DNA of 64,000 nt from Trypanosoma brucei (GCA_000002445.1 CM000208.1:3008001-3072000); one strand, 5' to 3'. Positions 2,779 to 32,947 are shown, counted from the first letter of the stretch. Numbers and translations are program-made. Notes: generated by a model not told the origin, from the sequence alone.

Positions 2779-4018
2779 TGGTAGTCAAAGTGCCAAATAC
2801 AACTAATGCCTTGCCTATGAACTACGATAAACGTGGACAAATTGATCAATGTCAAGTAGACATGCGCACTCTTGTTGAGGCGCGGCGCAGCAATTGATTT
2901 AAACTCCGCGGAAGAGTAGCCCCCGGCGGCATCGACCTATGAAAACGTGAGGAAAATGGAAGTAGCGGAAGAGGAAGATTAGAGAATCTTCGTTTTGAGT
3001 GACGACATATGGAAGGAAGCCATTCAACTCACAATTACCCCCCCCCCCACACACACACACGGTAAAAAGAGGTCCAACGAATAATACGATCCGCACTTCG
3101 CACACACAAATATGCATACGCTTTTGTCGCAAAGGCATATATACGTACGAGTATTACATTGTGCCTTTGACTTTGCACAATTTTTTTGTCTTCACTACCT
3201 CCCTCTACTCATTTTACCGTTTCCATTCCTTCTCTCCTTCCCGTTATTTCGTACGTTTGTTTTCCCTTTTGCCCCCTTCCCCCACTTCATATCGTCCAAA
3301 AAGTGAGCAAGTAAAACAAGAACTGCCCCCACCCCCTACGTTCGCTTCGTTTTGTCATTTTAAAGTCGTATTTCTTTTCCCTCCAACCCTCTCATCTCAG
3401 CTCCCATCTTCGATATAACACTAATATTTTGGTTCGTTCTGAAAACCAAATACGCAACCACCGTGGTGGGCCGTTGAAATCATCGTGAGTGAAGCTGCGC
3501 GAATAGTGAGAGAGTAAAATAAGAAAAAAAATGAGAAGGGAGAACAAAAAAAAAATGTACGCAAAACGAACAGGAAGAAAAATATAGTATAAACCAAAAC
3601 ACAAACGCAAACACAATAGGAATAGGAAAAAGGAAAGAAGAAATAATCGTTCCCTGACGTTACATCACCTTTTCATCTCCTGTTATCTTTTCCCACTTTC
3701 TCGCACTTCAGTGATAGGATAACTCGTTCGCCTATTTCCCCGTTCACCCGTGCATTACCTAAAGAGAGCCCCCAGCACCTTCTTCATGAGCGCGTGGAGC
3801 CACGCCGAATAGCTGACGAATCGGAAGAATGCATCCGTGACTTGTTTTGTGTTTGAGGTGGGTGCGCTTTCATCGTGTAAGTGGCAATTTGGCAGCCCAG
3901 TGACGGAATAACACGAGGTATCTGGGGATTCCTTTCTTACCGCTTCCGCACGCTCAAAAACTATATTAGACGATCCCCTGCTACCAGTGACCTCACTGTA
4001 TAGCACTGGGTCAGCCGT

Positions 4019-5155: not shown

Positions 5156-5651
5156 GATTTTTTCCGATATTCTCCAATACCTTTCCTTTGTTCTTTCTTG
5201 CCGCGGCTGCTTGATTTTGTTGTGTGTGTCCAAACGTGTGTCTTTCTTACAGATTTCTCCAGTGAGTTTCCCACGTGTGCGCAATTACAATAGTCACTAC
5301 TGCGCACGCTTGTATGGCTAGTTCTTTGTGATCAACGGACTAAATTAAAAAAAAAAACGCGTTACCTATAATAACCGCGATATCATTTGTTTTGGCGACA
5401 GTTTCGGGGGTGAAGGGGTAAATTTTATAGGGTTGTATTAAGTTATATGAGACGACAAAGGTTACTTCTGGGAAGCCTCCCCGGGGGATTACCATTACGG
5501 TAACCTTCCCGAGGTGTTGTAAAGAGCGAGTTTTGGAAAAGAAAGAAGAGAAAGGGTGACCACAAATGCTGTCTACTTCGTTCTCCTTTTTCTCTCCTTC
5601 TACCTCACAGTTCTTTCTTTCCCGTTAGATTTAGGTAGCCAACTTAAAACA

Positions 5652-5703
5652 GTAATAATAATAATAATAGTAATAATAATAATAATAAATCGTAATAATA
5701 ATA
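5652..5703. repeat. (AAT)n trinucleotide microsatellite, imperfect, about 15 units
   Basis: Read directly from the sequence. Confidence 0.9.
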
Positions 5704-6105
5704 GGTGGTGGTTCTGTGTCGTTGTAGCACGGTGGGAAGAGTGTTAGGATGCCTTGATAAGCCCCTGTGCATGCGTTGAACGCTCATCTGTTTTCCTTTG
5801 ACCACTTCCAACGGCCCTGACCCCACATAATCCCGTGGGCCCGCTTACCTGTATACATCCACAAACAGTCGTAGGGGTGTTGAGGTGCTGTGTATACAAG
5901 ACAGAAGGCGTTTCCCCACAAGAAAATAATAATAATATAAAGAAGTCCTGGGCAACACGTGCACTGATACCCCACACTCACCGAACTCTGTTACACATCG
6001 TGTCTAAAGTGCAAAAGGGAAGATGGGTATGAGAAGCATCCATCACGGAAACCGAATAACTTTCTTCCCCTTCCTCACATTCGTGCTTATCACGAACCTC
6101 CTCTC

Positions 6106-11918: not shown

Positions 11919-13920
11919 GGAGGCACACTACAATATTTTCTATTATTTGCTCTGTGACTAGTAAACCACAACGAAGCAACAATTTGTAAAAGAGAGAGGA
12001 AGGAAAAAGAAAAAGGCAGCTTGTAGAAATAAAGTGAACGTGAGAGTAGTTCAACGGCAGCTCGGGGAGTTGAGAGAGAGGGGGAAAAGTAACACAAGGT
12101 AATTACCAACAAGAAACTCCAAAAATGAAGCAGAGATAGTCCAAACACATAGCTCTCCCTCTTTTTATCTCGGTTTGTTGTCTTCTGTTGGTGACTCGCG
12201 TCTTTTGTTTTTGTTTTCGCGTCAAACTTTGCTTTGCTTTGTTTTTTTATTATATTTTGTTATTTTTTTTTCTGTTTTTTTTTTTGCTTATTTGCTCTTC
12301 CCACTTATCCTCTTCTGTTCCTCAATTATTTTTTTTTGTTGGAGCGCAATAATATAAGTCAATCAAATAATAAAATGGAGGTGTTGAGGAAAAGCAAAGG
12401 AAGAAGGGTAGTGGCGGCGTATAGAGGGAGTACGTAGAAAATAAAACGAAAAATAATGAAAACAACAAAACAAAAACAATGATGATAATGGTAATACATA
12501 TAAGTAAATAAATATAAATAAATATAAATAAATAAACATATATATATATATATATGTATGTGGAGAAACGGGATGAAAAAGGTGGGGAAATCGCTACTGT
12601 TGATTGCAACAAGCCCCAACCACCCGGCTACCGTGCATCAACAAAGGAAGAACACGAAATAATGCAAATAAAAGTTAATGTCGACTGTAACAAATAAAAT
12701 AAAAGAGGACAGGTGGAAATGAGTTTTTCAAATCTTTTATTTTTGCGTCTTCAAATTGTTTTATTCGACACAGTTTGACGCCTGATTGTTTGCTTTTCCC
12801 ATTTTCACTCTTTTCTTTTTCCTGCCGTGCACTCAATTGACAGAAGATGGGGGAGTGGGAGAAAAAAAATACAGTGAGAAAAAAAAAAAACAACGAACAA
12901 CAGCAAAAAAAAAAAAAAGATCCACAAGTGTAACGCACGGCAACTGTGGCGCACATGCATGTCCCCACACACATATATAAATAAATAAATAAATATATGA
13001 ATGGTTGCGTCACAATACGGCACTGCTGTTGGTCTTTAACAGCGAAAAAAAAAAAACAGTGATAATGTTGAGGACGCAAGTGAAACGAGTAAGCGGCTCG
13101 ACAGAGTGAACTAGGGAACAAATGAAAAAAAAAAAAAGCAGCCAGCACTAAAGAGAATAATGACTGTAACAAACAGTAAATCCGGTTACTCGTCATTTTC
13201 CTCCTTTTCTTCTTGTTGAATTTGATGTTGTTTTCCCTTCGTTCTTCCTCCCTCTTTTTTTTTCTTTTTCTTTTTTTTAAACTCAATAAGACAAAGTCAC
13301 TTCATTCCCAATGAATGTAGTAATAACAACTGTACCACACTTGTTTTTACCCGGTGTTGTTTATTCGTGATTCCCCTTGTTGTGTTTATTTTTGTTTTAT
13401 GCTTAAACTTCAATTTAAGCAGAAGAAAAAGCGGATGATTTCCCTTCCTTCTGTTTTTTAATGCCTTTTTCTTCTGTTTTATTTTTTTTTAATTACTTTT
13501 AACTGTTGTTATTGTTTTCTTTTTGTTCGACCCTCATGAACCTGAGAGGTTTAATTTTTCTTAACAACGAAAAAAAAAAACATCATCTTGAAGCCGGTAT
13601 TGTTGTCATATTACCGTCGGTGTAACACATGTTACGACAATGATTATAAAATACCCTTCGATTATTTACTTCTACATTTACCCTCCCCAATCCCAATCAA
13701 TCCCTTTTGTTTTTCTTTTGCGTCTTTTTTCCTTTTCCTTTTTCTTTTTCTTCTTTCGTTTGACTACTTCCAACATTTCCTCTTCCTTTTCTTGTTTCTT
13801 ATTTGTGTATTATCATTCTTCTCACTTCATTTCTTCATCTGCCTCATCTCATTTAACTCACCTTTCTTTTCCAAACCCACATTTTGAGTATTTTCTTTTT
13901 TTTGTTTTCCTTTTTTCTTC

Positions 13921-14812: not shown

Positions 14813-16237
14813 TTACCTCGCGTATGGCCAATTTAAAGGAACAGTGCCATCGTGTCCGGGTATTTGAGAGTTGTATAACTGCCATACATCCCCCAACGGC
14901 TGCGGCCGTGGCTGTTGAATGGTTCCGGTGCAACGTCGCTGCCCTGCGCCAAGAGTTACCACCGTGCTCAAAAACGAGCCATCAAAAACAGGTTGAACCG
15001 CCACTGCTTCAGCAGCGCCACGGGGGAGGAAAAGTAACGTTCCCACCGCAGCGGGATCATCCAACTGAGGAGACGGAGCAACGGTAATTGTCCGCGGAGC
15101 CGCTGCCTGTTGTGCCATGATGGAGACAAGTTGTGAGAGAAGAGTATTCATTTGATCTTGTGGAACTGTTCTGCCCGTTGTAGCGGAAGCATATCCAGTG
15201 CCGCAAACCCCCGCTGTTCTTAATGCGGCAAGTATTTCTTGGGTATTGGTGTCTCCCATTGGCGGTGTAGTGGCGGAGGGGCTACGTGGCCCTGAAGTTG
15301 GCTTCTGAGGGGCATTTTGTGGGAGACCACATGTTCCATTTAATCCTTGTCGAAGCGCCATTTGCACAACGGGACTTGGTTCAAAGGAGGGTGAACTAAC
15401 GTTGGGCACCCACCCGGATCCTCCATCGTGTCGACCTTCTTCTGGTGCTTTCCTCATCCCTGCGCTATGTTCTTCTTTATTGAAACCGCTGCCGTTATTT
15501 CCAACGACACTCTTTTTCCCCTTGATATTGTTGGAGTGCTGAGGAGATGTGCATGCTGAGGCATTTGGTTCAGCAACAACCTTTGGTGCACGCTTGAAGG
15601 CACCTTGTGCGTTTGGATCAACGCAAACAACATGGATAAAATTGCATCGTTCCCCAGTAAAACAGGTTTGGTTCGTTTCAAAGTACTTGCAGCGGATCAG
15701 CGGCTCAGCAATGTCATGACGGGCACAAGCTCCGCGCGTGTTAAGAACTTGTTCACTGGGGATTAAATTTACGGTAGTCATATCAGCGGAAAGAACCTCC
15801 AAAACTTCTCCGGCTGGTAGCCGTTCGTATGTACATTCACTCTCGTGGCGCCATATGTAATTCACATGAATGGGATGCGTCTCCAACGTGTTGTAATCAA
15901 CATCGGCATGAACAAATTTGCAACCGCTACCCATGGTGCATGAACTCGGCTCATATGATTTATAATTGCGGCAGGCCACCAACCGGGTAATATTCAACCG
16001 TGCTGATGGCATGTGCACTATGAGATGTGAAGGAACCTCATACAAACACTTAAACTCGGCGTCAAATACTTTTGTTAAATTAGCATTCGCACAGTTCTCG
16101 GTGCTGACACTCAACGGAAAATTTGTGCTTCCACACAACTCATTGCTTTGTTTCCATTGTTCCCAAATTTCATCAATTGCCCACATCGGCAACAACTCGT
16201 TGTCCATACTGTCCCCCTCGATAATATCCATCGTCAT
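14813..16237 (-). CDS. CCCH zinc-finger RNA-binding protein, the longest and most divergent paralog of a four-gene tandem array (474 aa). It has no C-terminal HNPY motif.
   Basis: Shares with the three downstream paralogs the block VFDAEFKCLYEVPSHLIVHMPSARLNITRLVACRNYKSYEPSSCTMGSGCKFVHADVDYNTLETHPIHVNYIWRHESECTYERLPAGEVLEV, followed by a second C-x8-C-x5-C-x3-H finger (CKYFETNQTCFTGERCNFIH). The C-terminus is a long Gly/Pro/Ser-rich low-complexity region. Confidence 0.75.
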   Translation of the reverse strand: MTMDIIEGDSMDNELLPMWAIDEIWEQWKQSNELCGSTNFPLSVSTENCANANLTKVFDAEFKCLYEVPSHLIVHMPSARLNITRLVACRNYKSYEPSSCTMGSGCKFVHADVDYNTLETHPIHVNYIWRHESECTYERLPAGEVLEVLSADMTTVNLIPSEQVLNTRGACARHDIAEPLIRCKYFETNQTCFTGERCNFIHVVCVDPNAQGAFKRAPKVVAEPNASACTSPQHSNNIKGKKSVVGNNGSGFNKEEHSAGMRKAPEEGRHDGGSGWVPNVSSPSFEPSPVVQMALRQGLNGTCGLPQNAPQKPTSGPRSPSATTPPMGDTNTQEILAALRTAGVCGTGYASATTGRTVPQDQMNTLLSQLVSIMAQQAAAPRTITVAPSPQLDDPAAVGTLLFLPRGAAEAVAVQPVFDGSFLSTVVTLGAGQRRCTGTIQQPRPQPLGDVWQLYNSQIPGHDGTVPLNWPYAR

Positions 16238-19200
16238 CCAGTGGGTCGGGAGGTGTCACCTCACCCTTCTTTTTTTCTTTTATTTTTTTGCCTTCTGTGG
16301 TAAAACCACACCTTCCCTTCACAATTATTGTTTCCTTTCCCTTCCTTTTTGGTTTACACTATTTTTCTTCGCTTATTCACTGTAACTTTGGTCACTTTTC
16401 ACGCCTTCAGTTTGTCTCTCACCTCGTTGACCTTCAACCGCGCAAATGTGAAAAGGGGAAAGGACGTCAAAAGAAAAAAAAGAAGGGTGAGGTGAGGTTG
16501 AAACATACAAACACACACACACATATATATATATTAGTCGAGCTACCGAGGCATTTATTTTTTGTATTCAGCAGCAAATACTTAAATGCACATTTCCATA
16601 CTGTGTAACATAACACAAAGTATTATCACATGCATATGCATAAGCAGAAAGACAAATAAATACATTTAATTGCCAGCTTGCCATTCGCAAGTTATTTAAG
16701 GTTCCTCCTTTTTTTTCTTTTTTAGGAGGAGGAGGAGAACATTCCGTTAGTTTTCATCACACCAATTGCGTCCATAACCGACGTTTAGTCACCGCAAATA
16801 CGACATTTCCCCCCGTTTCTGCACGTCATTTACTATATATATATATATACAAATTATACTATATGCATCTAACTGTACAAAATAAAATATAAATGGATAA
16901 CTAAAAAACAAAAAAGAATAATTATACGGAGAGAGAGAGAAAGAGAGAGAGCGCGTATGTGAAACGTTTATTTGAGATGAAAAGTGACTCATGTCGACTC
17001 AATTAAACCATCATGAGAGGGGGGGGGAAGAAATAATTAAATAAAAAACAACAAATCACAGAAACAAAATAATGTTAAAAAAGAAAAAAAAAGAAAACAT
17101 TGGAAAAAAATGAAGTGTAGGAACAAAAAAAATGTTGGAAAAAACGACGAAATAAACAAAGTACGTAAAAAAAAAATAAGCAAATAAATAAATGGTGTGG
17201 AGCTTTTTTTTTTTTGATGAAAATAGGAAGGGATACTGAAAAAACATACCAAGAAAAAGAAAAAAAAGGCAAAAAAAATAATCCCAATAAATAAAATCAA
17301 GTAAAGGAGATAGAGAGGGGAATGAAAATAATGAAAAAAAAAAGATCCAAACGACCCACTGAAAAAGAGAAAAGACGAGGGCAAAAGCAAAGGCAAAGGA
17401 GGAAGAAGGTGACAGAGACAGTTTCAAAAAATAAAAAAAAATAAAAAGGGGAGGAGGGGAATTAGTTGGTGGAGTGGAGTGTAGGAGGAATAAAAAAGAA
17501 AAGAAGAATGGAAGGAAGGAAGGAAGGGAAGTAAAGAAAAAAAAAGAAGGTAAAATAATATAAGTAATATAAATGATATAATTATATACGCACATGTCAG
17601 GCAGCTTCAAAAATAAATAAACAAACAAATAAACAGAAAGAAGGGGACAAAAAAAAGTTTTTTTAAAAAAAATTATGATATAAAGATAAAATGAGTAAGG
17701 GGTTCGAGTTATATAAAAATGGTGGAAGCGACCGCAACGCGTTGAGGCCCCGAATGAACGGAATGAAAATTACCGGCAGTGCTGCTGATTTCACACACAC
17801 ACCACACACCACACACGCAAAAAGAAAAAAATAAATAAAAATAAAAATAGACAGACAAACAACAGCCACACAAACAAACACTTCCCGTAGATTAGAGAGT
17901 ATAAAAAGGTACCAACTTATAAATTCCGTGGCCCGTATTCACGTTGAAGGAAAACAAAAATATATATTAATATTATTAATAAGTAATGAAAAATGTGCGG
18001 GTGGTAGGTGAAGAGACAATAAATTGGCATAATGAAAACTCACATAATTCTACTCGCTTCCCACATATTCGCCGCAGAAATACGCGCATAAAAATACGCG
18101 ACAGTGAAATCAGGCGTGTCAGTGGTTGCGTTAGTTCGTATTTATTTTTTCTTTTTTCTTGTTTTGTCTTATTTTTCTTTTTATCTTACTTGACTTTTGC
18201 TTTGGCATCAAAGAAGGATTGGAAAATTATGTGGGGAGGGGAGAAACGAGGATAATAATAATAATAATAAAGGGAAGGGAGTGACAATGGGAAAAGGTAA
18301 ACAAGAGGGGAAACTAAGTTAAAGTAATAAAAATATGAAAGTAAAGGGTAAAAAGTCGACACAACAAAAATGAGAACGTGTGTAAATTAGTGGCCCATTT
18401 AAAAACTTAAAGAAAGAGGGAAAAAAAGAGTAAAGTAATGTTTATTTGTTCGCTGCGTATTTATTGGCAAGTTGAACGATGCAAAAATAGGAGAGAAATT
18501 ATGTTGGGGCATAGGGAATAGTTGCTCCGCCTCCCCACCCTCTTTAGAACCATCAGCATCGTGTTTTGTTCTCTTTTTTTTCTTTTTTTTTTCATTTTAA
18601 AGGTTTCTTGTAAATGTTGCTATAGTATATAATGAAAGGTAATAATCCCACAAAAATAAATGCAAACATTTATATATTCATACATTCACACAAAAACACT
18701 GCTTTTCGGAGTTGGCGGAGGGATATGAGCGTTTTTAAAACCACACGTATGCGTTAGCGGAAGATGATACGCACAAAATAAAGTTTAAAAGAAAGGAATT
18801 GGGTAAAAACAAAAAGAAAAACAGAAACAAAAAAGGAAGGGAAGGGAAGGGAAGGGGAAAAAGAAAAGAGAAAAAGGGATGATGCATGCCCGGGGAAACA
18901 TATAAATGGATATGCAAATATATAAACATATATGCAAGTGTCAGATCATATAAAAATGCAAACATATATAAGTGTCAGGTCATATAATGACTTAAACAAA
19001 CACATATATAAATTTATATACATTAATTTACTTATACATATTTTTTTTTTAAAAAATAACAAAAATAGTTTAGGGAGGAGTAAGACAAAGACGATAAGGA
19101 AACAAAAAAAAATATTCAAACACAAAGCTCAAGTGTCACATTATTTCATTTCATTTCATTTCTTTTGTTTTGTTTTTTTTCTTTTTTTAAAAAATACCAC

Positions 19201-20669
19201 CTTTTTTTTCTTTCCTTTCCTCCTCTTTTTCTTTACCTTTTTTTTCTTTCAAAAATGGGGTAGTGAAAAGAAGCGTCGAAGGAAATTATATTGATAATAA
19301 TTAAACACTAAAATGAGAGAAAATAAGTAAATAAACAAAAAAAGCAATCACAACATGATGAGATGAGGTGTACATAAGGGGAAACTCATGTCAGTCGTGT
19401 TTTGCCTTGTTTGACCCCGGTCATACGTGTAGAAGTGGAGAAATAAAAATAACGATAAGAAAAAAAAAGAAAAGAAAAAGAAACAACACGACACAGAACA
19501 AGTAATGTTACGTATATGTTTTTTCTTTTGTTTTCAACACACCAAAACAAAATAAATAAATAAAAGAGGGGGCGTAAGGTTGAAACTAGTTATGCGTATT
19601 ATCATTCGGAAATGGAAGCGACGAAATGTTTAAAGGAAAATAAGTTAATTAAATAATAGAAAAATGGAGGGAAATGCGGAAAAGCTCTCGTCATTGGCCT
19701 ACATTTCATATTTGACCTCGAGGCACGTTATTTTTCTTAAAATTTTTGTGTTATAAATGCCGAAACGACAACGCCAATAATTATGGTTGTATAATGTGAA
19801 AGGAGTTAAAACCAATAGGAAAAAAAGACAAAAATCAGAAAAAAAAAGAAGGAGGATGGAGGGAGAAAAACAAAACAATATATCAGTAATAATTCAACAA
19901 ATAAAACGCTCCTCAAAAAGTCAAATATGTCTCATAATCGGTACCCTTCTACAACATATAAAAAAAACCAATTCCCCACAGTCGTATAGTTCGTGGCTAT
20001 TTTCTTTGCCTTATATTCAAGTTTCTCCATCTTTTTTTTCCTTTTCACATAAACCACAAATGTATGCACATACACGCCGATGAAGAGCCCTCTTTACCCC
20101 TCCCCCCCTTTTTTTTTTAAAAAAGAAAATTTAGTTCTTTCTTCATCCCATGAATCCGCTCAAATAAATAAGTAGAAAGACAAACCAAAGACAAAAAAAA
20201 ACTTAAAGACAATCCCAATAAAAATAAATAAAATAATAAAAAAATATATACTTATTATCTTATATTATTTCCTCCACCCCCTTTTTTTCCCCCACTGTCT
20301 TGTCTCCCCTCTCCACTCCAAAACCCACGCAATGTCCCCCTTTCCGTTGTCATATTTCCTTCATCAGTTATCCTCTTGCTTCGTATTTCTCTTTCAATTC
20401 ATACGTGCACTCGTATATTTTATTGTACTTACTCATAACCATATATATAAAGATATGCTTGTACGTTTGTTTATACGCACATAGGTTATACACAAAGGGG
20501 AAGTCAAAAGGCAGAGAGACGAGTAACGAGAAAGAAAGAGAAAGAGAGAGGAATAGAGAAGGAGAAAATAAAAAGGCACACATATACAAACATATATATA
20601 TATATATATAAATGTTTGTGTGCTTGTGTGTATATGTATGCATTGCTGTATGGATTGAAATATTCATCT

Positions 20670-21620
20670 TTATGACCTGCAGAGAACAGGATAGTAAGGA
20701 TTATGGCAATATGAAGCGGGCCGTGAGTTGGTTGCCATGGCGCTCCGTCTGGAGACTGAAGCATCGCTGAAGGCTGCAACAAGTGTCGGTCGGCTCTTCA
20801 CGACGGTACTCGTGCGGACGCGTGCGGTCACTCGGCATCGTGGAATTACGCTGCATGTTGCTGGAAGTGGCTCACCAGCGGCATCTACACGAAAAGACAA
20901 GGCGGTGTAACCGCCTGCTCCCATGGATAACGCTGGCGCCTCACGCTCCGGTGACGAAATGCAGAAGTCGCTTAACATCGGAGTCCCGCTTGCAAACGTA
21001 CGCGGCATCTTTTGAGAATCCGTGGCACTCGCGACTGCAGGGGACCTCGGCGTTGGAGTTACGGCTGCGGTACGGGCGGGTGCCCGTTTAAAGTCACCCA
21101 CAACAGTCGGGTCAACACAAAGTGTATGAATAAAACTGCATCGCTCGCCACGGCTGCACATTCGGTTGGTTGTATAAAGAGGGCAACGCATCAGTGAGTG
21201 CGGGAGTGCATTATGGTGTGCCACTGACCCGCGTGTGACGAGGACAAGTTCGCTGGAAATAAGTTCATGCTCTTGAGGGTTTTCCTGTGAGCAAACCTCC
21301 AAAACGTCTCCAGCTGGTAGCCGTTCGTACGTGCAATGGTCCTCATGGCGCCATATGTAATTCACATGAATGGGATGCGCCTCCAGCGTGCTGTAATCAA
21401 CATCGGCATGTACGAAGCGACAACTTTCCTCCTTTGCGCAGGAGTTTGGAACGCCAGATCTGTAATTGCGGCAAATCACAAGGCGGGAGATATTCAACCG
21501 TGCTGGTGGAACATGTAAAACAAAGTGGGCGGGCACCAGGTAAAGGTACTTGAAGTTGGGATCAAATACCTCCATGACGCCGTTTTGAACGTATTTGGCG
21601 CGATTGTCCTGCGATGACAT
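20670..21620 (-). CDS. CCCH zinc-finger RNA-binding protein paralog (316 aa from the MSSQDNRAKY start) with a C-terminal YCHNPY motif
   Basis: Same two-finger core (EVFDPNFKYLYLVPAHFVLHVPPARLNISRLVICRNYRSGVPNSCAKEESCRFVHADVDYSTLEAHPIHVNYIWRHEDHCTYERLPAGDVLEV; CPLYTTNRMCSRGERCSFIH). Start chosen at cat 21618-21620. The track ORF's extra 89 N-terminal residues (to 21887) are F/L-rich and AG-rich low complexity, translated from the upstream polypyrimidine tract and 5'UTR. Confidence 0.75.
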   Translation of the reverse strand: MSSQDNRAKYVQNGVMEVFDPNFKYLYLVPAHFVLHVPPARLNISRLVICRNYRSGVPNSCAKEESCRFVHADVDYSTLEAHPIHVNYIWRHEDHCTYERLPAGDVLEVCSQENPQEHELISSELVLVTRGSVAHHNALPHSLMRCPLYTTNRMCSRGERCSFIHTLCVDPTVVGDFKRAPARTAAVTPTPRSPAVASATDSQKMPRTFASGTPMLSDFCISSPEREAPALSMGAGGYTALSFRVDAAGEPLPATCSVIPRCRVTARVRTSTVVKSRPTLVAAFSDASVSRRSAMATNSRPASYCHNPYYPVLCRS

Positions 21621-21789
21621 ATTTCCACTTCCTTGTCTTTTCTTTTCCTCCCTTTTTTTTTCTCCTGCTTTCCTTTTGCAAGCGTTTCCTGTTGTCACGT
21701 TCAAACCGTTATCCGCTGTGCGATGCTTACTTTGTTTTAACTTTAAGAAACTGAAGATGAGTGTATTCGGCTTAACTTTGATATTTAAA

Positions 21790-21890
21790 CCAAACCAGGT
21801 TTGCAAAAAATAAAAAAAGGGGGGAAAAAATTGAAATCCATGAATATGCTTCAGAAAGAGAAACAGATAAGAAAAGTATGCACACAAACC
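21790..21890 (-). promoter_or_regulatory. Coding-strand polypyrimidine tract (purine-rich on the plus strand), the likely trans-splicing and upstream-polyadenylation signal for the zinc-finger gene starting at 21620
   Basis: The plus strand reads ...caaaaaataaaaaaaggggggaaaaaattgaaatcc...cagaaagagaaacagataagaaaag. Kinetoplastid SL trans-splicing needs a polypyrimidine tract on the mRNA-sense strand upstream of the AG acceptor (established knowledge). The placement is my inference. Confidence 0.4.
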
Positions 21891-24497
21891 TTTTTATAGT
21901 TTAACTTTCCAGTTTCCCTTTTCTCCTGGTCTGTTGGATGGGGAGTGCGGTGCCAATGTTAACACACTTCCCTCCCCCTCCCCTCCCTAACAAAAACAAA
22001 AAAAAAACAAAAAAAACAAAAAGACGAGAGAAAGATGGAGAGAGAAAAAAAGAAAAAGAAAAACGCTGTAAATTCCGTTTTTATTCCTTCTTAACCCTCC
22101 TAATGTAGAAAAAATAAAATTTAAAGAAAAAATCTCCTGAATAAGTAAACGAAAAAGGAAGAGAATGGGGGAAAAAAATAATTAAAAAGCCCCCGGTAAA
22201 AAAAATAAAATAAATACTCCACTAACGAACGATTTCGCCCTCACAGGCATATTTTTCTTTTGTTTTTTTTTTAAAACTTTTCCTACCTCTCCATTACACT
22301 TCTCTGTTTTAATTAATCACTTTGGCCTCTTTTTTTTCTTTTTAACACCCTCTCGTTTCGTTTAGTTCGAGCTGTTAAATTAAACTTAAAAAAGAAAAAA
22401 AAGGAAAAAAAAATCACGCTCACAAATGTTAAATGTGTTGCCGCAAGTCGAAGAGAAATAAGAAAGAGGAAGTAAAAAAGGGATAAAAAGACAATAAAAT
22501 CCAAAATAAAAAAAAGTGAAGGTAAAAAGAGTTTTTCCCCTTCACAAAGTGAACCAACTAAATTAAAAAAAGCTGATAATAATAATAATAAACTAAGAGT
22601 AGAAAAAAAAGGTTTTCTCCCACATAAATCCATTTAATAATAATAACCATCATCATCATCGAAAGAAAAGAAAAAAGTATAATGAAATAAGTGAAGAAAA
22701 ACAATAAATAAAAATAAAAAAGAAAAAAAAAGACAAGAAAACAAAACAAAACAAAATGCAAACAAAGAAACGAAATAAAACTAAAAAATTAAGACGACGT
22801 GAGTGTGCTCTGTGTTTGCAGCTTGTGCAACTACACTGTGTGGGATATCCAACACCATATGGTATCTTACATATGGTTTGGTACATATTTTTCACATAAA
22901 TGTAGCAGAAACACATTTAAAGCATCATCTTTCTTTTTTTTTTTGTTATTGTCCCCCTTCTTTCCCTCTTTTCACACACCACCTTCATCTAACGCACATT
23001 TTAAATCCATTTACATGCACATGTATGCATTTAATTCACTTTCATTCGTTAATTTATTCAATCATACACATATATTCATATATGTATATTCTTTTCATTT
23101 TCCTATCTCTCTATCTCTCTATTTCTTGCCATTCAGTTTTTAATGTCCATCAGGTACCGGTAACTTTCATAAAATTATAAACAGTTATTGTATGAAGGAA
23201 AATCAGAAAGTGTCGGAGGAGGGGAAATAATAAATGAAAGAGAATTCCCTTTTTCATTTTTTTTTCAAAAATAAAAAAAAATGAATTACTTCAATACATA
23301 AACTTAAGCTAATCGAAACAACTGCAGCCACAAAAACCAAAGGAGAGTTTGTTTTTTTTTTTAAAAAAAAAGAAAATTTGAGGGAAACGAACAAAATAAC
23401 AAAACAAAAAATTTTCTCTTCCCAACTTTTATGACGTAACGTAATGACAAATAAGCATAATTTTAAAAGGAAATAAAATGGGACAGGGGGAAAAGGCTGA
23501 GTAAGCTCAAATGATAAATCACAGTGATATAAAAATCAGTGTATCATCAGGAAAACAATAAAAAAAAAGACTAAAACAAGGGCGTTAGTACAGGAGTGAA
23601 AATAAATCCCGCTGCATTCCCATTTAAAAAAAATGAATAAACAATACATGAGGAGTAAAGAAAAAGGAAGTGAAAATATATATATATATATATATATATA
23701 ATTATTTTTTAAAAAAGAACGCACTCCATCGAAAAGAAATGCGGAAAGTGTGGGAAGAAATCGGTACAGGAAGAAAAATAAAATGCACATGGTTGTGGCC
23801 AGTGCCCAAGTGATACAAAATGATTCAAAGAAAAAAAAAGAAAGAAAGAAGAAAGAAGAGAAACTAAAGACGGATGCGACGTAAGGCCCGTAGGAACTTG
23901 AATCCGCTTTTCTCTTCTTCTTATTTTCTTTGTGCATCATTTTCTCCTCGCGGAATAAATATGGGTACAAATATATATATATAGATAGATAGATACATAT
24001 ATAAGTAAACGTAAAAACAAAACAAAACTCAAGGTGAGGTGTCACAGCGCATTAGATCTTACTATATTATTATCATTAATATATTTTTTTTTAAAAAAAG
24101 GAAATGAAAAAGCATAAATGAATTCGGCGTTACGCCCACTCTAAAACGTTTCATAATGAAACAAACGAAATGACGCATAAAAGAAGTCACTCAAACCAAC
24201 CCAAAACCTTTAAAGGCCCATGGCCGCCGATAACATTCGATATCTCGATAGTATTAATTTAACGAACGGTAAACAAACTAAAAAAAACCACAAACTAAAA
24301 TAATGTGCGATAAAAAGGGTTTAAAAGAACATGAATAAGAAAAGATAAACTAATAAGTTTATTATTAACAATATATGAGAGTAAAATAAAGGAAAAGGAA
24401 CGAAATAGAGAGTTAAAAAAAAGTGGGGAAAAAGACGCACCTCCCACCGAACAACTCATCACTGGTTACAATTAAACTCAGCGAATATTATCCTCAT

Positions 24498-25358
24498 TTA
24501 TAACCCGTAAGGATTATGTCGGTAGAAACGTGGGCGCCGAGGAGCACTGCCATCAGAAATGGTGTTCATGTCAGATGTAGTGCAATCATCATGTTGATGG
24601 CCACTTCCAGAAAGTCCGAGATGCCCGTTATCGCGACCTGAAGTGGGACTCGTCACATCGCTACTGCCGACGGAAGGAACTCTTTTGTGCACAACCATCG
24701 CGAAACCAAGTGGCGTCCCATCGGGAAATGAACCGGGAGAACTGTCGAGAGGGCTCCCAGCTGATAATTTTTCTCCGGATTTATTACCACTGGCGTGATG
24801 GCGCCGATGAGAGCGGCAAAGAATACGATTGGAGCTGAGATCCACTTCAGGGTCGACGGCAACAGCATGAACAAAGTTGCAGGACGCGCCACGATGACAT
24901 ACGCCATTAAAATAGTAATGTGCGCAATGAGAAAGTGGTCTTCCCTCCGCAGAGGGCTGTGGAATAACTGCTTGTGTAACAAGAACGAGTCCGCTAGCAA
25001 TCCTCTCAATTGGTTTTTTATTATTGGGAAGCAGAACCTCAAGCACATCACCCGATTGACAGCGTTCGTATGTACATTCACTCTCATGGCGCCATATGTA
25101 ATTCACATGAATGGGATGCGCCTTCAGCGTGCTGTAATCAACATTGGCGTGTAGAAACCTGCAATCGCTACCCGCAAGACATGAGTTCGGGTCGTAAGGT
25201 TTATAATGAGTACAAATCATTGTGTACGGGTTGCTTGGATGCACATGTGGCATGTGGACCACTGAATGAGAAGGTATCTCGTACATGTACCTGAACTCTA
25301 TATCAAATACCTCCACAGTGGTTTTACGGTTTTTTGCCATAGATTTCTTTGAGGGCAT
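24498..25358 (-). CDS. CCCH zinc-finger RNA-binding protein paralog (286 aa), ending FYRHNPYGL
   Basis: Fingers C-x10-C-x5-C-x3-H (CTHYKPYDPNSCLAGSDCRFLH) and C-x8-C-x5-C-x3-H (CAHYYFNGVCHRGASCNFVH). Near-identical at nucleotide level to the 29528-30436 gene over about 810 nt. The C-terminal [FY]RHNPY matches the MKT1-interaction motif described for trypanosome RNA-binding proteins (established knowledge). Confidence 0.8.
   Translation of the reverse strand: MPSKKSMAKNRKTTVEVFDIEFRYMYEIPSHSVVHMPHVHPSNPYTMICTHYKPYDPNSCLAGSDCRFLHANVDYSTLKAHPIHVNYIWRHESECTYERCQSGDVLEVLLPNNKKPIERIASGLVLVTQAVIPQPSAEGRPLSHCAHYYFNGVCHRGASCNFVHAVAVDPEVDLSSNRILCRSHRRHHASGNKSGEKLSAGSPLDSSPGSFPDGTPLGFAMVVHKRVPSVGSSDVTSPTSGRDNGHLGLSGSGHQHDDCTTSDMNTISDGSAPRRPRFYRHNPYGL
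24505..25317. repeat. Copy A of an approximately 0.81-kb segmental (tandem-gene) duplication. Its partner is at 29531-30346.
   Basis: Long runs are identical between the copies, for example ggattatgtcggtagaaacgtgggcgccgaggagcactgccatcagaaatggtgttcatgtcagatgtagtgcaatcatcatgttgatggccacttccagaaagtcc (24510-24617 and 29536-29643) and the whole zinc-finger-encoding block. An internal patch of about 120 nt (24618-24736 versus 29644-29771) is unrelated and is flanked by re-convergence at gagaactgtcgagagggctccc. Confidence 0.85.
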
Positions 25359-28300
25359 TATGTCTTTGCTTCAATAGTTGCTTTCTTTTTTTCCCCCCTT
25401 TTTGTGCTTCTTGCTGTTGCTTTGTTGGTGTTTTCTTATGCTTTTTTTCTATTGTGTTTGCCATGTGTCCATTTTTTTTTTTTTAGTTTATGGTGAGGAA
25501 TGACAAAGAATAAGAAAATTAACGGAGGATAAATTTGATCAAATAAGAAGTTTTCGCATGTATACAGACAAATCAGTTGATTGGTACGAATGTTAATACA
25601 AGAAGATATTACGCTCACCCTGAACCACAAGGAAGTACATATTACAAAACTAAGAAAACAGCAACAGCAACATTATTTAAATTGGAAAGAGAAAAGAGTC
25701 ACAACACCAAAAAAACGAAATAATTATTTTCTCATGCTTTACCGTCAGCACTTACTGAACACATCACCACACAATGGGAAATTGCGAAGATGTTGTGTTC
25801 AAGAAGTGGGAATGACAGCACTAGATGAAGAAATAAGTGATTACAACGTCTGACTTCATCATCCCTTCTTCTTTCCCGCGCAAATTTATGACAAGTAGAG
25901 GAGATTATTAAGAAAAGAGGAAAAAAAAACAATAAAAAACAATAAAAGAACAAAGAAACGAAAAAAAAAGAGGAGGATGAACACATACGCGCACGTTCTT
26001 TTTCCCCACCCGTGACCCCGAGAGTCACGCTTTCGCTTAATCATCCCACACCCCATATTTTCTTTCCCTTTATTTCCTTCAGTTACCTTCGTCTTTTTCT
26101 TTCTTCCCCTCATCTCTCTCTCTCTCTCTTATTTTCTTTTTTTTTTGTTTTTTGTTTGTAAGTTAAATTGTAGAGGAGTGTGCGTATGCATTAAATCCAT
26201 ACCTTTCTTCACTATTTTTTTAAAATTTCTTTTACCTCTCCTCCTATTTTTTATTCTCTCTTTACCTTTTGTTAACAAAACAAAACAAAGAAAAAATTAC
26301 ATAATTTCTCCCTTCTCCTCTTCCTCTTCCTCCTTTTTTTTCTCTCTCGTTCTTTCTATTTACTCTGTTTCCTTTAATATTTTCACAAAAAAAAACGGTA
26401 AGACGGCATTAACGACACCGGTAGAAACATTTGGAAGAAGCAGAGGAGGAAAAAAAAAAGAAAGAAAGCAATTAGAAGGGAGAGTTAAAAAAGGTACATC
26501 CCCAAAATAAGACATTAACAAAACAAAACAAAGGAAAAAAAAGAAAAAAGAAGACAAACACGAACACAAAAACACACACACACACAAAAAAAAGAAACAA
26601 TGATCGGCACAGTTTGTTATTATTTACTACTGCTGCTGCTCATTTTTTTTTAATTTGTTTATTTGGATTTTTCTTTTATTCTCTCATCGCTGTTTGAGGT
26701 ATTTGGAACGATTATTCATATCATATTCATCTTCCCTCGCGTGTTGTCTTCGTTTTACATCCACTCGACTCTCCCTCATTCTATCTTCCCTTCCCCTCCA
26801 ATTGCGTCAAATCAATAAAAAAAAGAAAAGAAAAAAAAAGACAAAGACAAAGAAAAATGCGACTAAACCCTTCGCACCTCTTTTATCTTTATCCTTGCTT
26901 TTTTTTTTAAAAAAAAGAGAAATTTACAAAAATAATAACAATAATGATTTTAAAAAAGTTTCATTATTATTTTTATTATTGTGGTCATATATATATTTCT
27001 TTTCTTTTCTTTTCTTCTTTTCTTTTCTTTGTTAAAATTTGAAACATTTGTCTCTTCCTTTACACTCTTTCTTTCTTTCTTTCACCCTTTCTCTCTCTCT
27101 TTTCTTTCCCCCTTCACATACACTTAAACTTGAACTTTTCATTCCTTCACACCTTCATACAACATACACATATGTGCGGTGACTCGCATTTTAGTTCCAT
27201 CGCCACATTATTTTACTCCGCAAGCACTTCAATATAATATATATATATATATATATATTTATTTATTTATTTAAAAATAGAAGAAAATTGAGAAACAAAC
27301 GAAAAGAGGTTGAGGAATAGTAATGGCGGAGGTGATGAGGCAAACGTGTTGCTCCCAACTAATACAGCTGCGGGTCCGACGGCAACTTCTGTTTTTTTCT
27401 TTTCTTTCCTTTTCTTTTCTTTTCTCTTCTTTTCTTTCCTTTTCCTTCATCTTTTTTATTCTTTACTTTACCTTACTCTTCTCTTCACTTTTATTTATTT
27501 ATTATATATTTGTTTGTTTCTTCATTCTTTTTTTCTTCGTTTTTAAATCCCACCGCTGCGAAGTGATGGTCCATTTTTCTTTTCCTTTGTTTTTCGAAAT
27601 TGCAGGACAGAGGAGTAAAATGCAAGAGCGTGTAAAAAGAAGTTGTTGAAGGAAGATACGAAAGAAAAAAAAAGGAGGAGGGGGGGGGGTGAAATAACAC
27701 ACCGGAGAAGGGAAAGAGACAAATAAAAAGAGAAAAAAGAAAGGAAGAAAGAAAAAAAAATACATATATTGACTGAGCGAATAACTGAGTAGTTCTTCTT
27801 TCTTTTTTTTTCCTTCTTCTCTTTTTCTTCCTTTTCTGTTAGGGTTTCTCAGCATTCTGACATTATTTATTATTTTTTTTGTTGTTGTTTCCCCTGCCAT
27901 AAAGGAGAGGAACATGGAGTGGAAGGAAGTTTGGAGATAAATAGGGAAAACATGATTGAGTGAAGTGGATTGGGAAGTCATGGCGTAACCCGTTCCATTC
28001 ATTACGTTGCATATATATATATATATTATTTTGCATTTGTTTGTTTGTGTTCATTGTGTTGTTGTTGTTGTTGTTTTTATCTTCTAGAGGGTAGTTATGA
28101 CGACAACAGAGGCTCAGCAAGCAAAATAGTAGTAATAGACAATAATAATAATAATAACAATAGCAATAGTAATAATAATAATAAGCACTAAAATTAAAAT
28201 TTTCTCTTCTTTATATTTTAAAAACAGAGCAATACCACCTTTCCATATCCGACATTTTACTCTTGCCTCCTTCTTAAGATTTTCACTCGTGTTATTATAT

Positions 28301-29428
28301 CAACCTTAGACAAAATTGCCATGAACGGACGAACCCCTCTCATTAGTAATATTATTATCAACGCTATTATTTCTTTTTTTTTTCCCTCCCTTTTAAGTTG
28401 ACACTCCCTTCTCCATTCTCTCATTACATTGGATCTCTTATTTTTCTTTGCTTTTTTCTTTTTTAAAAAAACATTCTCATTTATCTATCTGTTTGTTGTT
28501 CCTTCACTAACCACTATATTTATATTTATTTATAACAGAGGTTACCGCAGAAATTCTTAAGGAAAAGCAAATCAAAATATATTTTGTTGTGGCTCTCCTT
28601 CGATTTCTCTCGCTCTTTTTTCTTTTCTTTTCTTTTATTTATTTTTTCTCCCACACCACACCACGTGTTGTGGTATGCGGAAACGGAGCAGCGGGACGCG
28701 AAAGTGTGGAGAAATAATAAACAAAATCGGGCGTGCCACATGCAAAACAAAAAAAAAGAAAAAAAAAGAAAAGAAGCGGATCTACAGAACACAGGTACGC
28801 TCCAGCAAATACCTGTAAGGCATATTAAGCAGCAATACAAATAAACAAGAAAAAAGAAAAGGAAGAAGAAAAAGAAAAAGAAAAATGACATTTGCAAGGA
28901 GGGTAGGCGGGGGAAACGATCGTTAAAGTAAAAAAATTCACACACATTTTCATTTCTTTGTTTGTTTTTCTTTTTCTTTTGTATGAACCACAATCATGCA
29001 GCATCGTTTCTGGACGTTTGGCTGCCTTCTCTTTCCTTCTATTTTTCCGTTTCTTCATCTCTTTGGTTCCTTAACAAAAAAAAAAAAAGAGTCGTATCCG
29101 TCACGACCGTTCACGTTAATAAAAGATATGTTGTGAATTTAAACTATTTTCGATCGACCCCGCAGTAAAACAAAACGCAAAAAAAAAAAATTCAACAACA
29201 AGAGCAAACGAACGAAAATTAAAACGGCAACGGCAAAAAAAAACGCGCCTTTTTTTACGGTATGAAGGGAAAGGAAGATTGAGGAAAAGAAAACACGCAT
29301 AGTATCACTTCGCCCACAATCAAAATGGACGCACCCAAAAAGGGCCGCAGGGATCAGACAAAAAGTTAAAGTAAAAAAAAAGAAAAAGAAAGAAAAAAGA
29401 AAGGTGGACAAACGGGGGAGGGGAAACA

Positions 29429-29430
<2 letters not shown>

Positions 29431-29461
<31 letters not shown>

Positions 29462-29462
29462 A
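29431..29462. repeat. (ACA)n trinucleotide repeat, about 10 units, immediately 3' of the zinc-finger paralog at 29528
   Basis: Read directly from the sequence. Confidence 0.9.
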
Positions 29463-29527
29463 TTACAAACAAGTCCACAAGACGAGTGCAGCAGAGTAGA
29501 CTAAATGAGAGAAGGGATTCCCCACAT

Positions 29528-30436
29528 TTACAGCTGCTGGTAAGGATTATGTCGGTAGAAACGTGGGCGCCGAGGAGCACTGCCATCAGAAATGGTGTTC
29601 ATGTCAGATGTAGTGCAATCATCATGTTGATGGCCACTTCCAGAAAGTCCATATTGCATACTTCCAACTGCAGAGGCGGAAAATGATGAGCCGCTGTAAA
29701 CTGTAGAAGGGGCTCGCTTACAAACCATTGTTGCAATGCTGGCGGGTACTCCTGCAGCACACGGGTTCGGAGAACTGTCGAGAGGGCTCCCACACGCCGT
29801 CTTCACAGCGGATTTATTACCACTGGCGTGATGGCGCCGATGAGAGCGGCAAAGAACACGTTTGGAGCTGAGATCCACTTCAGGGTCGACGGCAACAGCA
29901 TGAACAAAGTTGCAGGACGCGCCACGATGACATACGCCATTAAAATAGTAATGTGCGCAATGAGAAAGTGGCTTTGCCCTCGGTCTCCGGCGAGGAATAA
30001 CTGCTTGTGTAACAAGAACGAGTCCGCTAGCAATCCTCTCAATTGGTTTTTTATTATTGGGAAGCAGAACCTCAAGCACATCACCCGATTGACAGCGTTC
30101 GTACATACAGCACTGCTCGTGGCGCCATATGTAATTCACATGAATGGGATGCGCCTTCAGCGTGCTGTAATCAACATTGGCGTGTAGAAACCTGCAATCG
30201 CTACCCGCAAGACATGAGTTCGGGTCGTAAGGTTTATAATGAGTACAAATCATTGTGTACGGGTTGCTTGGATGCACATGTGGCATGTGGACCACTGAAT
30301 GAGAAGGTATCTCGTACATGTACCTGAACTCTATATCAAACGCACTGGTCACATCAGTTGCTGTGGTCATCTTGACTTTGTTTGGTTCTTCTTGATATTC
30401 TTCTCTTTCTTGATGAACTATTCGGTGCTGTGCCAA
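29528..30436 (-). CDS. CCCH zinc-finger RNA-binding protein paralog (302 aa; alternative start MTTATDV at 30373), ending FYRHNPYQQL
   Basis: Recent tandem duplicate of the 24498-25358 gene. The zinc-finger core is identical, and the N-terminus, an internal patch and the 3' flank have diverged. A purine-rich plus tract at 30440-30520 is a coding-strand polypyrimidine tract immediately upstream. Confidence 0.8.
   Translation of the reverse strand: MAQHRIVHQEREEYQEEPNKVKMTTATDVTSAFDIEFRYMYEIPSHSVVHMPHVHPSNPYTMICTHYKPYDPNSCLAGSDCRFLHANVDYSTLKAHPIHVNYIWRHEQCCMYERCQSGDVLEVLLPNNKKPIERIASGLVLVTQAVIPRRRPRAKPLSHCAHYYFNGVCHRGASCNFVHAVAVDPEVDLSSKRVLCRSHRRHHASGNKSAVKTACGSPLDSSPNPCAAGVPASIATMVCKRAPSTVYSGSSFSASAVGSMQYGLSGSGHQHDDCTTSDMNTISDGSAPRRPRFYRHNPYQQL
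29531..30346. repeat. Copy B of the approximately 0.81-kb segmental duplication (partner at 24505-25317)
   Basis: See copy A. Similarity ends at about 30346 on the 5' side of the gene, where the N-terminal coding sequences diverge, and at about 29531 just beyond the stop codon. Confidence 0.85.
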
Positions 30437-31426: not shown

Positions 31427-32947
31427 CTACGACCCCTCCATAACAGTTGATCGACTACTCGCATTGTCCCTTCGAGATAACTCCACTTCAGTAGCATCAC
31501 GAATGCGGGCAATTAGCAGACTTGTTGATATCCCTTCCGTACGTGGTGCTGTCCGAAGAATACCCATTCTGCGTGGCACTGCATAATACGTGTCATCAGG
31601 GCGGTTGTATTCATCACCACACACCACCACGTGAATATTGTAGCGTTTGATCATTTCTTCAGTGACGCCGGTAACAGGGCTGTTCCGAATAACCTGTGAA
31701 ACAAACTTACACATCTTTACTTCATTCACCCTTTCATCGACTGTCATGATTGGCCGTCGTTTGTACGCTTCGCATTCATCATCTCCACAAACACCAACAA
31801 TGAGGCGATTGCCGTAGAGAAGAGCATTCTGCAGGAAGTTCTTATGTCCCGCATGACACAAGTCAAAAACACCATCACAGAACACATTTCTCACAGGCGC
31901 GAAAAGGGGAATACGCGCGGAATATGACAGATCCGCCATCATCCCAATAACGTACAGGATCGATGCGCCTATGGAAAGAATATCGTTAAATACGGATCCC
32001 ACACAAATACAAATGACGGCCGCATGCACCCGCCTGCCGGAAACGTTGCTCACATGCACCTCCGTTGAAAGTAAACCAACAGCAAGAGATCCACTGATAA
32101 GACTGAATACATTGTTGTTAGTGAAAGAAAAGATATTGAACAGCGGCACCACACGAGTGGCCAAACACACGGCAATCGCCGCCTTATGTTTCTTCTCCAT
32201 CTTCAGAAGCAACAAGTTTGTGAAGCTCACCATGACAAGGAATATGAATGCATCTCTCAAAAAGTTTGGATAGACTGGACTGTAAAAGTTCATATCCGGA
32301 AATACCACTCTTGCAATCAACGCGCAGAGAATTAGGAAGGAAAGTTCCGAGTCACGAAAGCAATACGTCAGGTGATAAACAACTGTCTTCGCCTTCCCTC
32401 CTCTCAGATTTTCAGCGCTTATGCGTCCCAGCACCGTGTTGAATTCGATCAGTTGCAGTACCATTAGAGCATACCACTGTGTTGAGATATCAACTATATT
32501 GAACGCTTTCATGAGCGTCAGAGCAAAGAAAATGCGCAGAACACTACTGCAGACACGAGAAAATATGTCACCCAGTGGCGTAGCGGAGCGGCACCGCCTT
32601 GCGTGCACACCATCCAACGCACCGCACATGATAGCTACAACACATAACAAAGACGACATTAATATGGGCCCAGTTGCCGCTGCAGTGTGTGACTGAGGGG
32701 TTTGGTCATAGTACTCGCTGAGGATCTGGTATGACTGCACGGAGCTCATTAAACCCACTAATGTAATGGTGTTGGGTGCCACGGCCTCCGGCACAAAAGT
32801 GCTATCTAAAAAAACCCAAAGTGAGTGGAGCACCAACGTCACAAAACTAACGGGACGCGTCTCAACACTTGTATCTGCATGTGCGACGCGGTCCCGCTCC
32901 AGAGGTGTAAAAAAAAAACTGTGGTCACTCAGGTAGTGGGATACCAT
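31427..32947 (-). CDS. Choline/ethanolamine-phosphate cytidylyltransferase (C-terminal about 170 aa) fused to an N-terminal multi-pass CDP-alcohol-phosphotransferase-like membrane domain (506 aa)
   Basis: C-terminal domain: HxGH nucleotidyltransferase motif (GVFDLCHAGHKNFL) and the CCT/ECT signature RTEGISTSLLIARI. N-terminal domain: the CAPT-family entry motif VAPNTITLVGL and a partial DG-x2-AR-x8-G-x3-D-x3-D motif (ALDGVHARRCRSATPLGDIFSRVCSS), with about 7 hydrophobic helices. Confidence 0.8.
   Translation of the reverse strand: MVSHYLSDHSFFFTPLERDRVAHADTSVETRPVSFVTLVLHSLWVFLDSTFVPEAVAPNTITLVGLMSSVQSYQILSEYYDQTPQSHTAAATGPILMSSLLCVVAIMCGALDGVHARRCRSATPLGDIFSRVCSSVLRIFFALTLMKAFNIVDISTQWYALMVLQLIEFNTVLGRISAENLRGGKAKTVVYHLTYCFRDSELSFLILCALIARVVFPDMNFYSPVYPNFLRDAFIFLVMVSFTNLLLLKMEKKHKAAIAVCLATRVVPLFNIFSFTNNNVFSLISGSLAVGLLSTEVHVSNVSGRRVHAAVICICVGSVFNDILSIGASILYVIGMMADLSYSARIPLFAPVRNVFCDGVFDLCHAGHKNFLQNALLYGNRLIVGVCGDDECEAYKRRPIMTVDERVNEVKMCKFVSQVIRNSPVTGVTEEMIKRYNIHVVVCGDEYNRPDDTYYAVPRRMGILRTAPRTEGISTSLLIARIRDATEVELSRRDNASSRSTVMEGS

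Follow-up and report, generated by a model that had tools for sequence, protein, structure and literature searches.

Mosaic CCCH zinc-finger paralogs ZC3H37 and ZC3H38 of Trypanosoma brucei: an old tandem duplication probably homogenised by repeated short gene conversion

The 64,000-nucleotide (nt) window analysed here (GCA_000002445.1 CM000208.1:3008001-3072000, with positions counted from its first letter) belongs to Trypanosoma brucei chromosome 10 and contains an array of four genes for CCCH zinc-finger proteins, ZC3H35 to ZC3H38. Two of these genes, ZC3H37 and ZC3H38, are tandem neighbours 5,033 nt apart that share both strand and transcription unit, and their coding sequences (CDSs) form a mosaic in which nearly identical blocks alternate with strongly diverged patches. 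A mosaic duplicate pair had been proposed at about this position in a first-pass annotation of the window, and this proposal is borne out by an alignment of 801 nt whose blocks agree at 619 of 621 positions, far beyond chance. It is very probable that ZC3H37 and ZC3H38 are old tandem paralogs homogenised by repeated short, non-reciprocal gene conversion between the two loci. The two CDSs are as follows:

24498-25358, minus strand: ZC3H37 CDS (Tb927.10.12780), 286 amino acids (aa), with two CCCH fingers and a C-terminal HNPY motif
29528-30370, minus strand: ZC3H38 CDS (Tb927.10.12800; old identifier Tb10.389.0740), 280 aa

The translation of ZC3H37 is identical to XP_823480.1 (P0020) of T. b. 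brucei TREU927 and shares 99.7% identity with an entry named ZC3H37 (P0001), and that of ZC3H38, read from its ATG, is identical to a protein (P0002) with both TREU927 and DAL972 accessions. According to the published pairing of gene identifiers and names, Tb927.10.12760, Tb927.10.12780 and Tb927.10.12800 are ZC3H36, ZC3H37 and ZC3H38, respectively (PMC3985637, PMC4055773), and Tb927.10.12740 is paired with ZC3H35 in the literature. The names ZC3H35-38 and their identifiers are absent from the main text of Kramer 2010 (PMC2873481).

The alignment of ZC3H37 with ZC3H38 extends from 24507/29540 to 25307/30340 at a constant offset of 5,033 nt, with an overall identity of 691/801 (86%). Six blocks account for 621 nt, and the remaining 180 of the 801 nt fall into four patches with approximately 40% identity. 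In the direction of transcription, the blocks and patches are (ZC3H37 coordinates, with the ZC3H38 partner in brackets and the ZC3H37 residues named first):

25087-25307 (30120-30340), minus strand: block A, 221 nt with 0 differences; covers the first CCCH finger
25071-25086 (30104-30119), minus strand: patch B, 16 nt with 10 differences; SECT versus QCCM
24961-25070 (29994-30103), minus strand: block C, 110 nt with 0 differences
24939-24960 (29972-29993), minus strand: patch D, 14 differences; PQPSAEGRP versus PRRRPRAKP, directly before finger 2
24776-24938 (29809-29971), minus strand: block E, 161/163 identical; covers the second CCCH finger (C-x8-C-x5-C-x3-H)
24760-24775 (29793-29808), minus strand: patch F1, 16 nt with 13 differences; GEKLSA versus AVKTAC
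24736-24759 (29769-29792), minus strand: island between F1 and F2, 24 nt with 0 differences
24618-24735 (29651-29768), minus strand: patch F2, 118 nt in each copy with 73 differences; 39 residues of the Ser/Gly-rich tail
24507-24617 (29540-29650), minus strand: block G, 111/111 identical; encodes GLSGSGHQHDD...PRRPRFYRHNPY with the HNPY motif

Both differences in block E, at 24828 and 24824, are non-synonymous. Where the first-pass annotation had placed the edges of a single internal patch, its break in the first copy (24618) is exact, but the points in the second copy are 29651 and 29769/29770 and not 29644 and 29772, a deviation of 2-7 nt; the patch in question is F2, and three smaller ones (F1, D and B) had been missed, two of which (D and B) are located inside the zinc-finger core. 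Likewise, the homogenised part does include the putative RNA-binding module, as had been suggested, but it also takes in the C-terminal block with the HNPY motif. Similarity between the two genes stops at 25308 in ZC3H37 and 30341 in ZC3H38, and outside the aligned stretch no relationship is seen in the first 10-17 codons, in the last 2-3 or in any of the flanking DNA. The swapped N-termini (MPSKKSMAKNRKTTVEV in ZC3H37, MTTATDVTSA in ZC3H38) and the unrelated flanks that had been noticed are both real: BLAST gave 0 matches between any of the intergenic regions that flank ZC3H37 and ZC3H38.

The clustering of the differences is extreme. The longest identical run measures 221 nt; when the 110 differences were permuted 20,000 times, no such run was longer than 98 nt. 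The blocks hold 2 differences in 621 nt, none of which, counted by the Nei-Gojobori method, is synonymous over approximately 138 synonymous sites (dS = 0), whereas the patches are saturated at synonymous sites (pS ~0.95) and most of their differences are non-synonymous at the protein level. Constraint on the protein is not the cause of the block identity, since approximately 138 synonymous sites are unchanged while the same codons vary freely across species. A check for uniform divergence, suggested together with the original proposal, showed a strongly bimodal distribution; with this bimodality and without any intergenic similarity, the pair in T. brucei does not look like a simple recent duplication of a whole unit.

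Comparison of strains offers a view of the process over a shorter time. The window (which matches TREU927) was aligned with the assemblies of T. b. gambiense DAL972 (GCA_000210295.1) and T. equiperdum (GCA_003543875.1). Patches D and F2 are fixed differences between ZC3H37 and ZC3H38 in all three strains. In T. b. gambiense, ZC3H37 has the ZC3H38 version at the 9 sites of patch B and at 13 sites comprising patch F1 and one adjacent site, which is not the case in TREU927 or T. equiperdum. The strain-specific tract spanning F1 measures 65-92 nt, and the strain-specific tracts are short and internal (about 12-50 nt and 65-92 nt). Single columns of the alignment show related patterns. At column 943, ZC3H37 and ZC3H38 of TREU927 share a T, whereas those of T. 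b. gambiense and T. equiperdum share a C; columns 326 and 331 distinguish the two paralogs in each of the latter two strains but not in TREU927. Over the 628 block columns of this alignment, 2-6 sites separate the two paralogs of a strain and 1-5 the orthologues of two strains; in TREU927 the paralogs differ at 2 block sites, and ZC3H37 differs from its own orthologues at 3-5. Because the paralogs are no further apart in the blocks than the orthologues, the blocks must coalesce about as recently as the subspecies. Conversion appears to be an ongoing process in these genes, and patches B and F1 appear to be still segregating.

The original proposal had left open whether gene conversion or unequal crossing over was at work, and of these the former, as repeated short-tract conversion on an old duplication, is well supported while the latter is not needed. 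If cycles of array expansion and contraction by unequal crossing over had homogenised the copies in place of non-reciprocal conversion, a precedent would be T. vivax, in which the orthologous gene at the same locus (L003, 1-10857) is homogenised within the species as in T. brucei. Unlike T. brucei, however, T. vivax has three whole units of approximately 3.7 kb, intergenic DNA included, at 99.3-99.7% identity, without internal patches or distinct untranslated regions (UTRs) and with proteins that differ by one residue; coding and intergenic DNA have been duplicated together there, which fits a simple recent whole-unit tandem duplication and is what unit duplication or unequal exchange would be expected to produce. 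The sole homologue found in T. congolense, TCIL3000_10_10890 (P0003), might also be cited in favour of crossing over, as it looks chimeric, with an N-terminus and PRRRTRVKP linker similar to ZC3H38 and a tail patch and ...HNPYGL end similar to ZC3H37, and it could be a crossover product or one among several copies. In T. brucei, however, a crossover would bring flanking DNA along and alter the copy number, whereas the three assemblies agree in copy number, in the 5,033-nt spacing and in both unrelated intergenic regions (the comparison for copy-number variation that had been recommended), so that unequal crossing over is not required. Moreover, the identity ends inside the CDS on both sides, and the strain-specific tracts are short and internal. 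We therefore regard unequal crossing over as an improbable source of the mosaic, and short non-reciprocal conversion is retained in what follows.

The patches themselves were examined for their origin. Patch F2 had been described as lacking similarity, which proved to be incorrect: the two versions are of equal length (118 nt), in register and in frame, and their 45/118 identity was attained by 1 of 5,000 shuffles. Since, in addition, the T. congolense protein bridges both versions, F2 is best regarded as old, unconverted homologous sequence that has diverged. Other origins of F2 were considered and rejected, including an inversion (the reverse-complement alignment scored no better than shuffles), a frameshifted reading (the other copy resembles none of the alternative frames) and a copy of sequence from elsewhere (BLAST found no second match within the window). 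For patch D, a small inversion or compensated frameshift was not adopted, the gapped alignment being barely better than the ungapped one. Patch B differs in this respect, in that CAGTGCTGTATG of ZC3H38 and AGTGAATGTACA of ZC3H37 and ZC3H35 match at 26/30 positions with a +1/-1 indel pair five nt apart, compared with 21/30 in frame, which suggests that a compensated frameshift may have made QCCM from SECT.

The unconverted parts also provide information on the age of the duplication. Within F2, ZC3H37 and ZC3H38 share 10/39 residues with each other, and 16/39 (ZC3H37) and 13/39 (ZC3H38) with T. congolense; within the core they share 165/177 residues with each other, and each shares 108-111/177 with T. 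congolense. The N-terminus of ZC3H37 (MPSKKS...EVFD) is found again in T. cruzi (MPSKGS...EVFD) and T. melophagium (MPSQKS...EVFD), and the short ZC3H38-type N-terminus in T. congolense, T. vivax and T. grayi. The PRRRxRxKP linker of ZC3H38 (patch D) recurs in T. congolense and T. vivax, where ZC3H38 has 5/7 residues in common with T. congolense and 6/7 with T. vivax, compared with 0/7 and 1/7 for ZC3H37, so the ZC3H38 version of patch D appears to be the ancestral-like one. On the other hand, it is the tail of ZC3H37 and its ...HNPYGL end that are found again in T. congolense. As the unconverted parts match different relatives, both sequence types must be older than T. brucei, and the pair is, as far as these affinities indicate, an old tandem duplication.

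These affinities bear directly on a slightly less probable explanation still, namely that a recent duplication of the CDS alone was followed by very fast divergence of its ends and four patches under positive or relaxed selection. The near-identity of the blocks, taken alone, would fit a young duplicate, and the predominance of non-synonymous differences in the patches would be expected under such selection. Against this, synonymous sites are saturated in the patches and unchanged in the blocks of the same CDS, the flanks are wholly unalignable, the N-termini, patch D, tail and C-terminus resemble different trypanosomes as described above, and the patches have boundaries that shift from one subspecies to another as if sequence had been copied and pasted. 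An assembly artefact (collapsed or chimeric repeats) or purifying selection alone can hardly account for the mosaic, for although near-identical repeats are a known source of assembly errors and the zinc-finger core is under protein-level constraint (invariant columns), the two genes are found with the same patches and flanks in each of three assemblies that were deposited separately (the TREU927 window, GCA_000210295.1 and GCA_003543875.1), and such selection cannot keep those synonymous sites identical.

Sequence exchange by conversion seems to extend to the other members of the array, which lie downstream of ZC3H37 and ZC3H38 in the direction of transcription. These two genes, the gene upstream of the array and a stretch shared by all four paralogs are located as follows:

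20670-21620, minus strand: ZC3H36 (Tb927.10.12760), third array member, 316 aa
14813-16237, minus strand: ZC3H35 (Tb927.10.12740, identifier from gene order), fourth array member, 474 aa, CDS of 1,425 nt
31427-32947: cholinephosphate cytidylyltransferase (CCT) gene, Tb10.389.0730, upstream of the array and adjoining ZC3H38
25083-25151, minus strand: 69-nt stretch homogenised in all four paralogs (partners 30116-30184, 21342-21410 and 15842-15910)

The minus strand holds all open reading frames (ORFs) in the window of at least 150 aa that match a known gene, and the intergenic DNA is AT-rich and of low complexity; the layout is that of a trypanosomatid polycistronic unit. Of converted sequence, ZC3H36 has no more than a short stretch in common with ZC3H37 and ZC3H38. 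The 69-nt stretch encodes HA(N/D)VDYSTL.AHPIHVNYIWRHE and is near-identical in ZC3H35-38, synonymous sites included: third positions are identical at 21-22/23, compared with about 36% elsewhere. Since the orthologues in T. vivax, T. cruzi and T. melophagium encode the same residues with other codons, conversion and not constraint at the nucleotide level would be responsible, and the stretch looks like a short conversion tract across the whole array. In addition, a run of 23 nt at patch B of ZC3H37 is the same as in ZC3H35, both in TREU927 and in T. equiperdum. This matches the single 22-bp event between copies 2 and 4 of array 109c in Table S2 of Jackson 2007, recovered independently here.

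Both proteins combine a first finger of the form C-x10-C-x5-C-x3-H with a second of the form C-x8-C-x5-C-x3-H, as read from the sequence; the Pfam zf-CCCH-type models match both below the curated cut-offs (e.g. 23.1 bits against a cut-off of 29). RFYRHNPY occurs near the C-terminus of each, within the identical block G. Binding of MKT1 has been reported for the HNPY motif, together with an MKT1 two-hybrid interaction (PMC3985637); both ZC3H37 and ZC3H38 activate expression when tethered to a reporter mRNA (PMC3985637, PMC4055773). In the tethering screen, ZC3H35 was among the repressors and the HNPY-bearing ZC3H36-38 among the activators. ZC3H35 ends in ...NWPYAR, without the HNPY ending. ZC3H37 ends in ...RHNPYGL followed by the stop codon (24498-24512), that is, two residues after the motif, and ZC3H38 has three residues there, in all three strains.

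With regard to expression, published data show higher levels of Tb10.389.0740 (ZC3H38) in cultured bloodstream forms than in procyclic ones, and likewise in slender compared with stumpy forms, and ZC3H38 has been listed as a slender-form marker. ZC3H37 mRNA drops after RNA interference (RNAi) against ZC3H20 in a study of insect-form cells. Together with the unrelated UTRs, these published data suggest that ZC3H37 and ZC3H38 are regulated differently. Because the blocks are identical at 619 of 621 positions, however, short reads and microarray probes, as well as RNAi fragments and peptides, cannot be assigned clearly to one gene or the other, and published expression and knock-down data for ZC3H37 and ZC3H38 should be read with this ambiguity in mind.

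The course of events may be pictured as follows. After the tandem duplication, stretches of one CDS would have been copied onto the other by repeated short, non-reciprocal homologous recombination, the tracts starting and ending within the coding region, to which they would be confined because the flanking DNA has no homology. Overlapping successive tracts would have wiped out synonymous divergence in 621 of the 801 nt. In T. b. gambiense, ZC3H38 sequence would already have replaced that of ZC3H37 at patches B and F1, and patch B would also record an exchange with the more distant paralog ZC3H35. Patches D and F2 may persist either because local divergence blocks the recombination intermediate or because convertants are selected against. 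The outcome is a pair of proteins that have their zinc fingers and HNPY block in common but each have a different N-terminus, linker before finger 2, 39-residue tail segment and pair of UTRs, differences which would allow stage-specific regulation. In trypanosomes, which lack gene-specific promoters, two regulators may thus be kept near-identical in protein while unrelated UTRs set the stage of expression, and the unconverted patches point to the site of any functional difference between ZC3H37 and ZC3H38. A further possibility, which we put forward only tentatively and hold to be rather unlikely, is that D (with its change from the basic PRRRPRAKP linker to PQPSAEGRP) and F2 are held apart by selection and carry the functional difference between the slender-enriched ZC3H38 and the procyclic-linked ZC3H37. 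If so, conversion would be bounded by selection, and D and F2 would show where the specificity of two regulators, identical in all other respects, is determined.

Several considerations weigh against this account of old paralogs homogenised by conversion. The mechanism is inferred from patterns in the sequence. Three assemblies of the T. brucei group were compared, and for one of them (DAL972) the TREU927 reference had guided the ordering. Short segments of the T. congolense protein underlie the dating of the duplication, and the differential expression is known from published transcriptomics, in which near-identical CDSs can cross-map.

The array has been described before. Jackson 2007 (BMC Evol Biol 7:54, PMC1855330) lists an array Tb109c ("109c" in the tables; Tb10.389.0830-0740) on chromosome 10 with 4 copies, CDSs of 843-1425 bp, coordinates 2971249-2986804 and the domain C-x8-C-x5-C-x3-H. 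In the window, the first and last CDSs of the array are 843 and 1,425 nt long and the array spans 14813-30370, i.e. 15,558 nt compared with 15,556 bp as published; since the two agree in chromosome, number of copies, range of CDS lengths, span, type of domain and neighbouring gene, Tb109c is the array of the window. In Figure 1 of that paper, Tb109c illustrates 'mixed' dynamics or patterns of variation: the UTRs are distinct, copies evolve in concert, and orthology is preserved in the fourth copy. The same figure presents GENECONV output for copies 1-3, and the 22-bp conversion between copies 2 and 4 is listed (PMC1855330). The array, its mixed dynamics and its conversion events were thus already published in 2007, and the present finding is a correct rediscovery. 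Absent from the text and tables of that paper, so far as these are accessible, are the block map, the conversion tracts in T. b. gambiense ZC3H37, the 69-nt stretch in four copies, the link to HNPY and the later gene names. A paper of 2010 on the genome of T. b. gambiense described subspecies-specific mosaics as a general feature of tandem arrays, in which gambiense copies are recombinants of other duplicates (PMC2854126). This is the same phenomenon in the same genomes as for ZC3H37 and ZC3H38, but array 109c, and hence the gambiense ZC3H37 mosaic, is not included among the 35 arrays of Table 2 in that paper.

Comparable systems are known within and beyond trypanosomes. ZC3H20 and ZC3H21 (bioRxiv 10.1101/646547) are, like ZC3H37 and ZC3H38, adjacent and related two-finger CCCH proteins, of which ZC3H21 has an HNPY motif; they are expressed at different life-cycle stages and have overlapping targets, but are encoded on chromosome 7. 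Among the traits that ZC3H37 and ZC3H38 have in common with the human globin genes HBG1 and HBG2 are an old duplication, a near-identical tract, sharp boundaries and diverged flanks. The HBG1/HBG2 pair is a classical case of interlocus conversion, in which all these features occur and the tracts are polymorphic between haplotypes. The two cases differ in organism and gene family, and in that the divergent flanks in trypanosomes are UTRs, which bear essentially all gene-specific regulation.

Related observations in other trypanosomes support a general proneness of the locus to conversion. In T. melophagium (L005), two small paralogs at 2205-3113 and 4759-5676 show 99.9% identity along 832 nt, a stretch that starts 10 nt before the ATG and reaches to about codon 274, and then have unrelated C-termini (...CFYRHNPYRPLVP and ...RVYRHDPYQLLK) and unrelated flanks. 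This is the same kind of CDS-limited homogenisation, of independent origin, in a distant trypanosome. In T. cruzi (L004), the genes at 10001-10942 (313 aa, ZC3H37/38-type) and 12254-13567 (437 aa, ZC3H36-type) are 88.5% identical over 696 nt, which include 178 nt upstream of the ATG, and approximately 60 N-terminal residues are near-identical. As the similarity joins a ZC3H37/38-type gene to a ZC3H36-type gene, exchange in T. cruzi would have taken place between another pair of the array. Finally, the T. equiperdum assembly GCA_003543875.1 (L002) contains an intact ZC3H38 ORF at 4974-5816 that carries no gene call, the annotated genes there being ZC3H37, ZC3H36 and the 474-aa gene.

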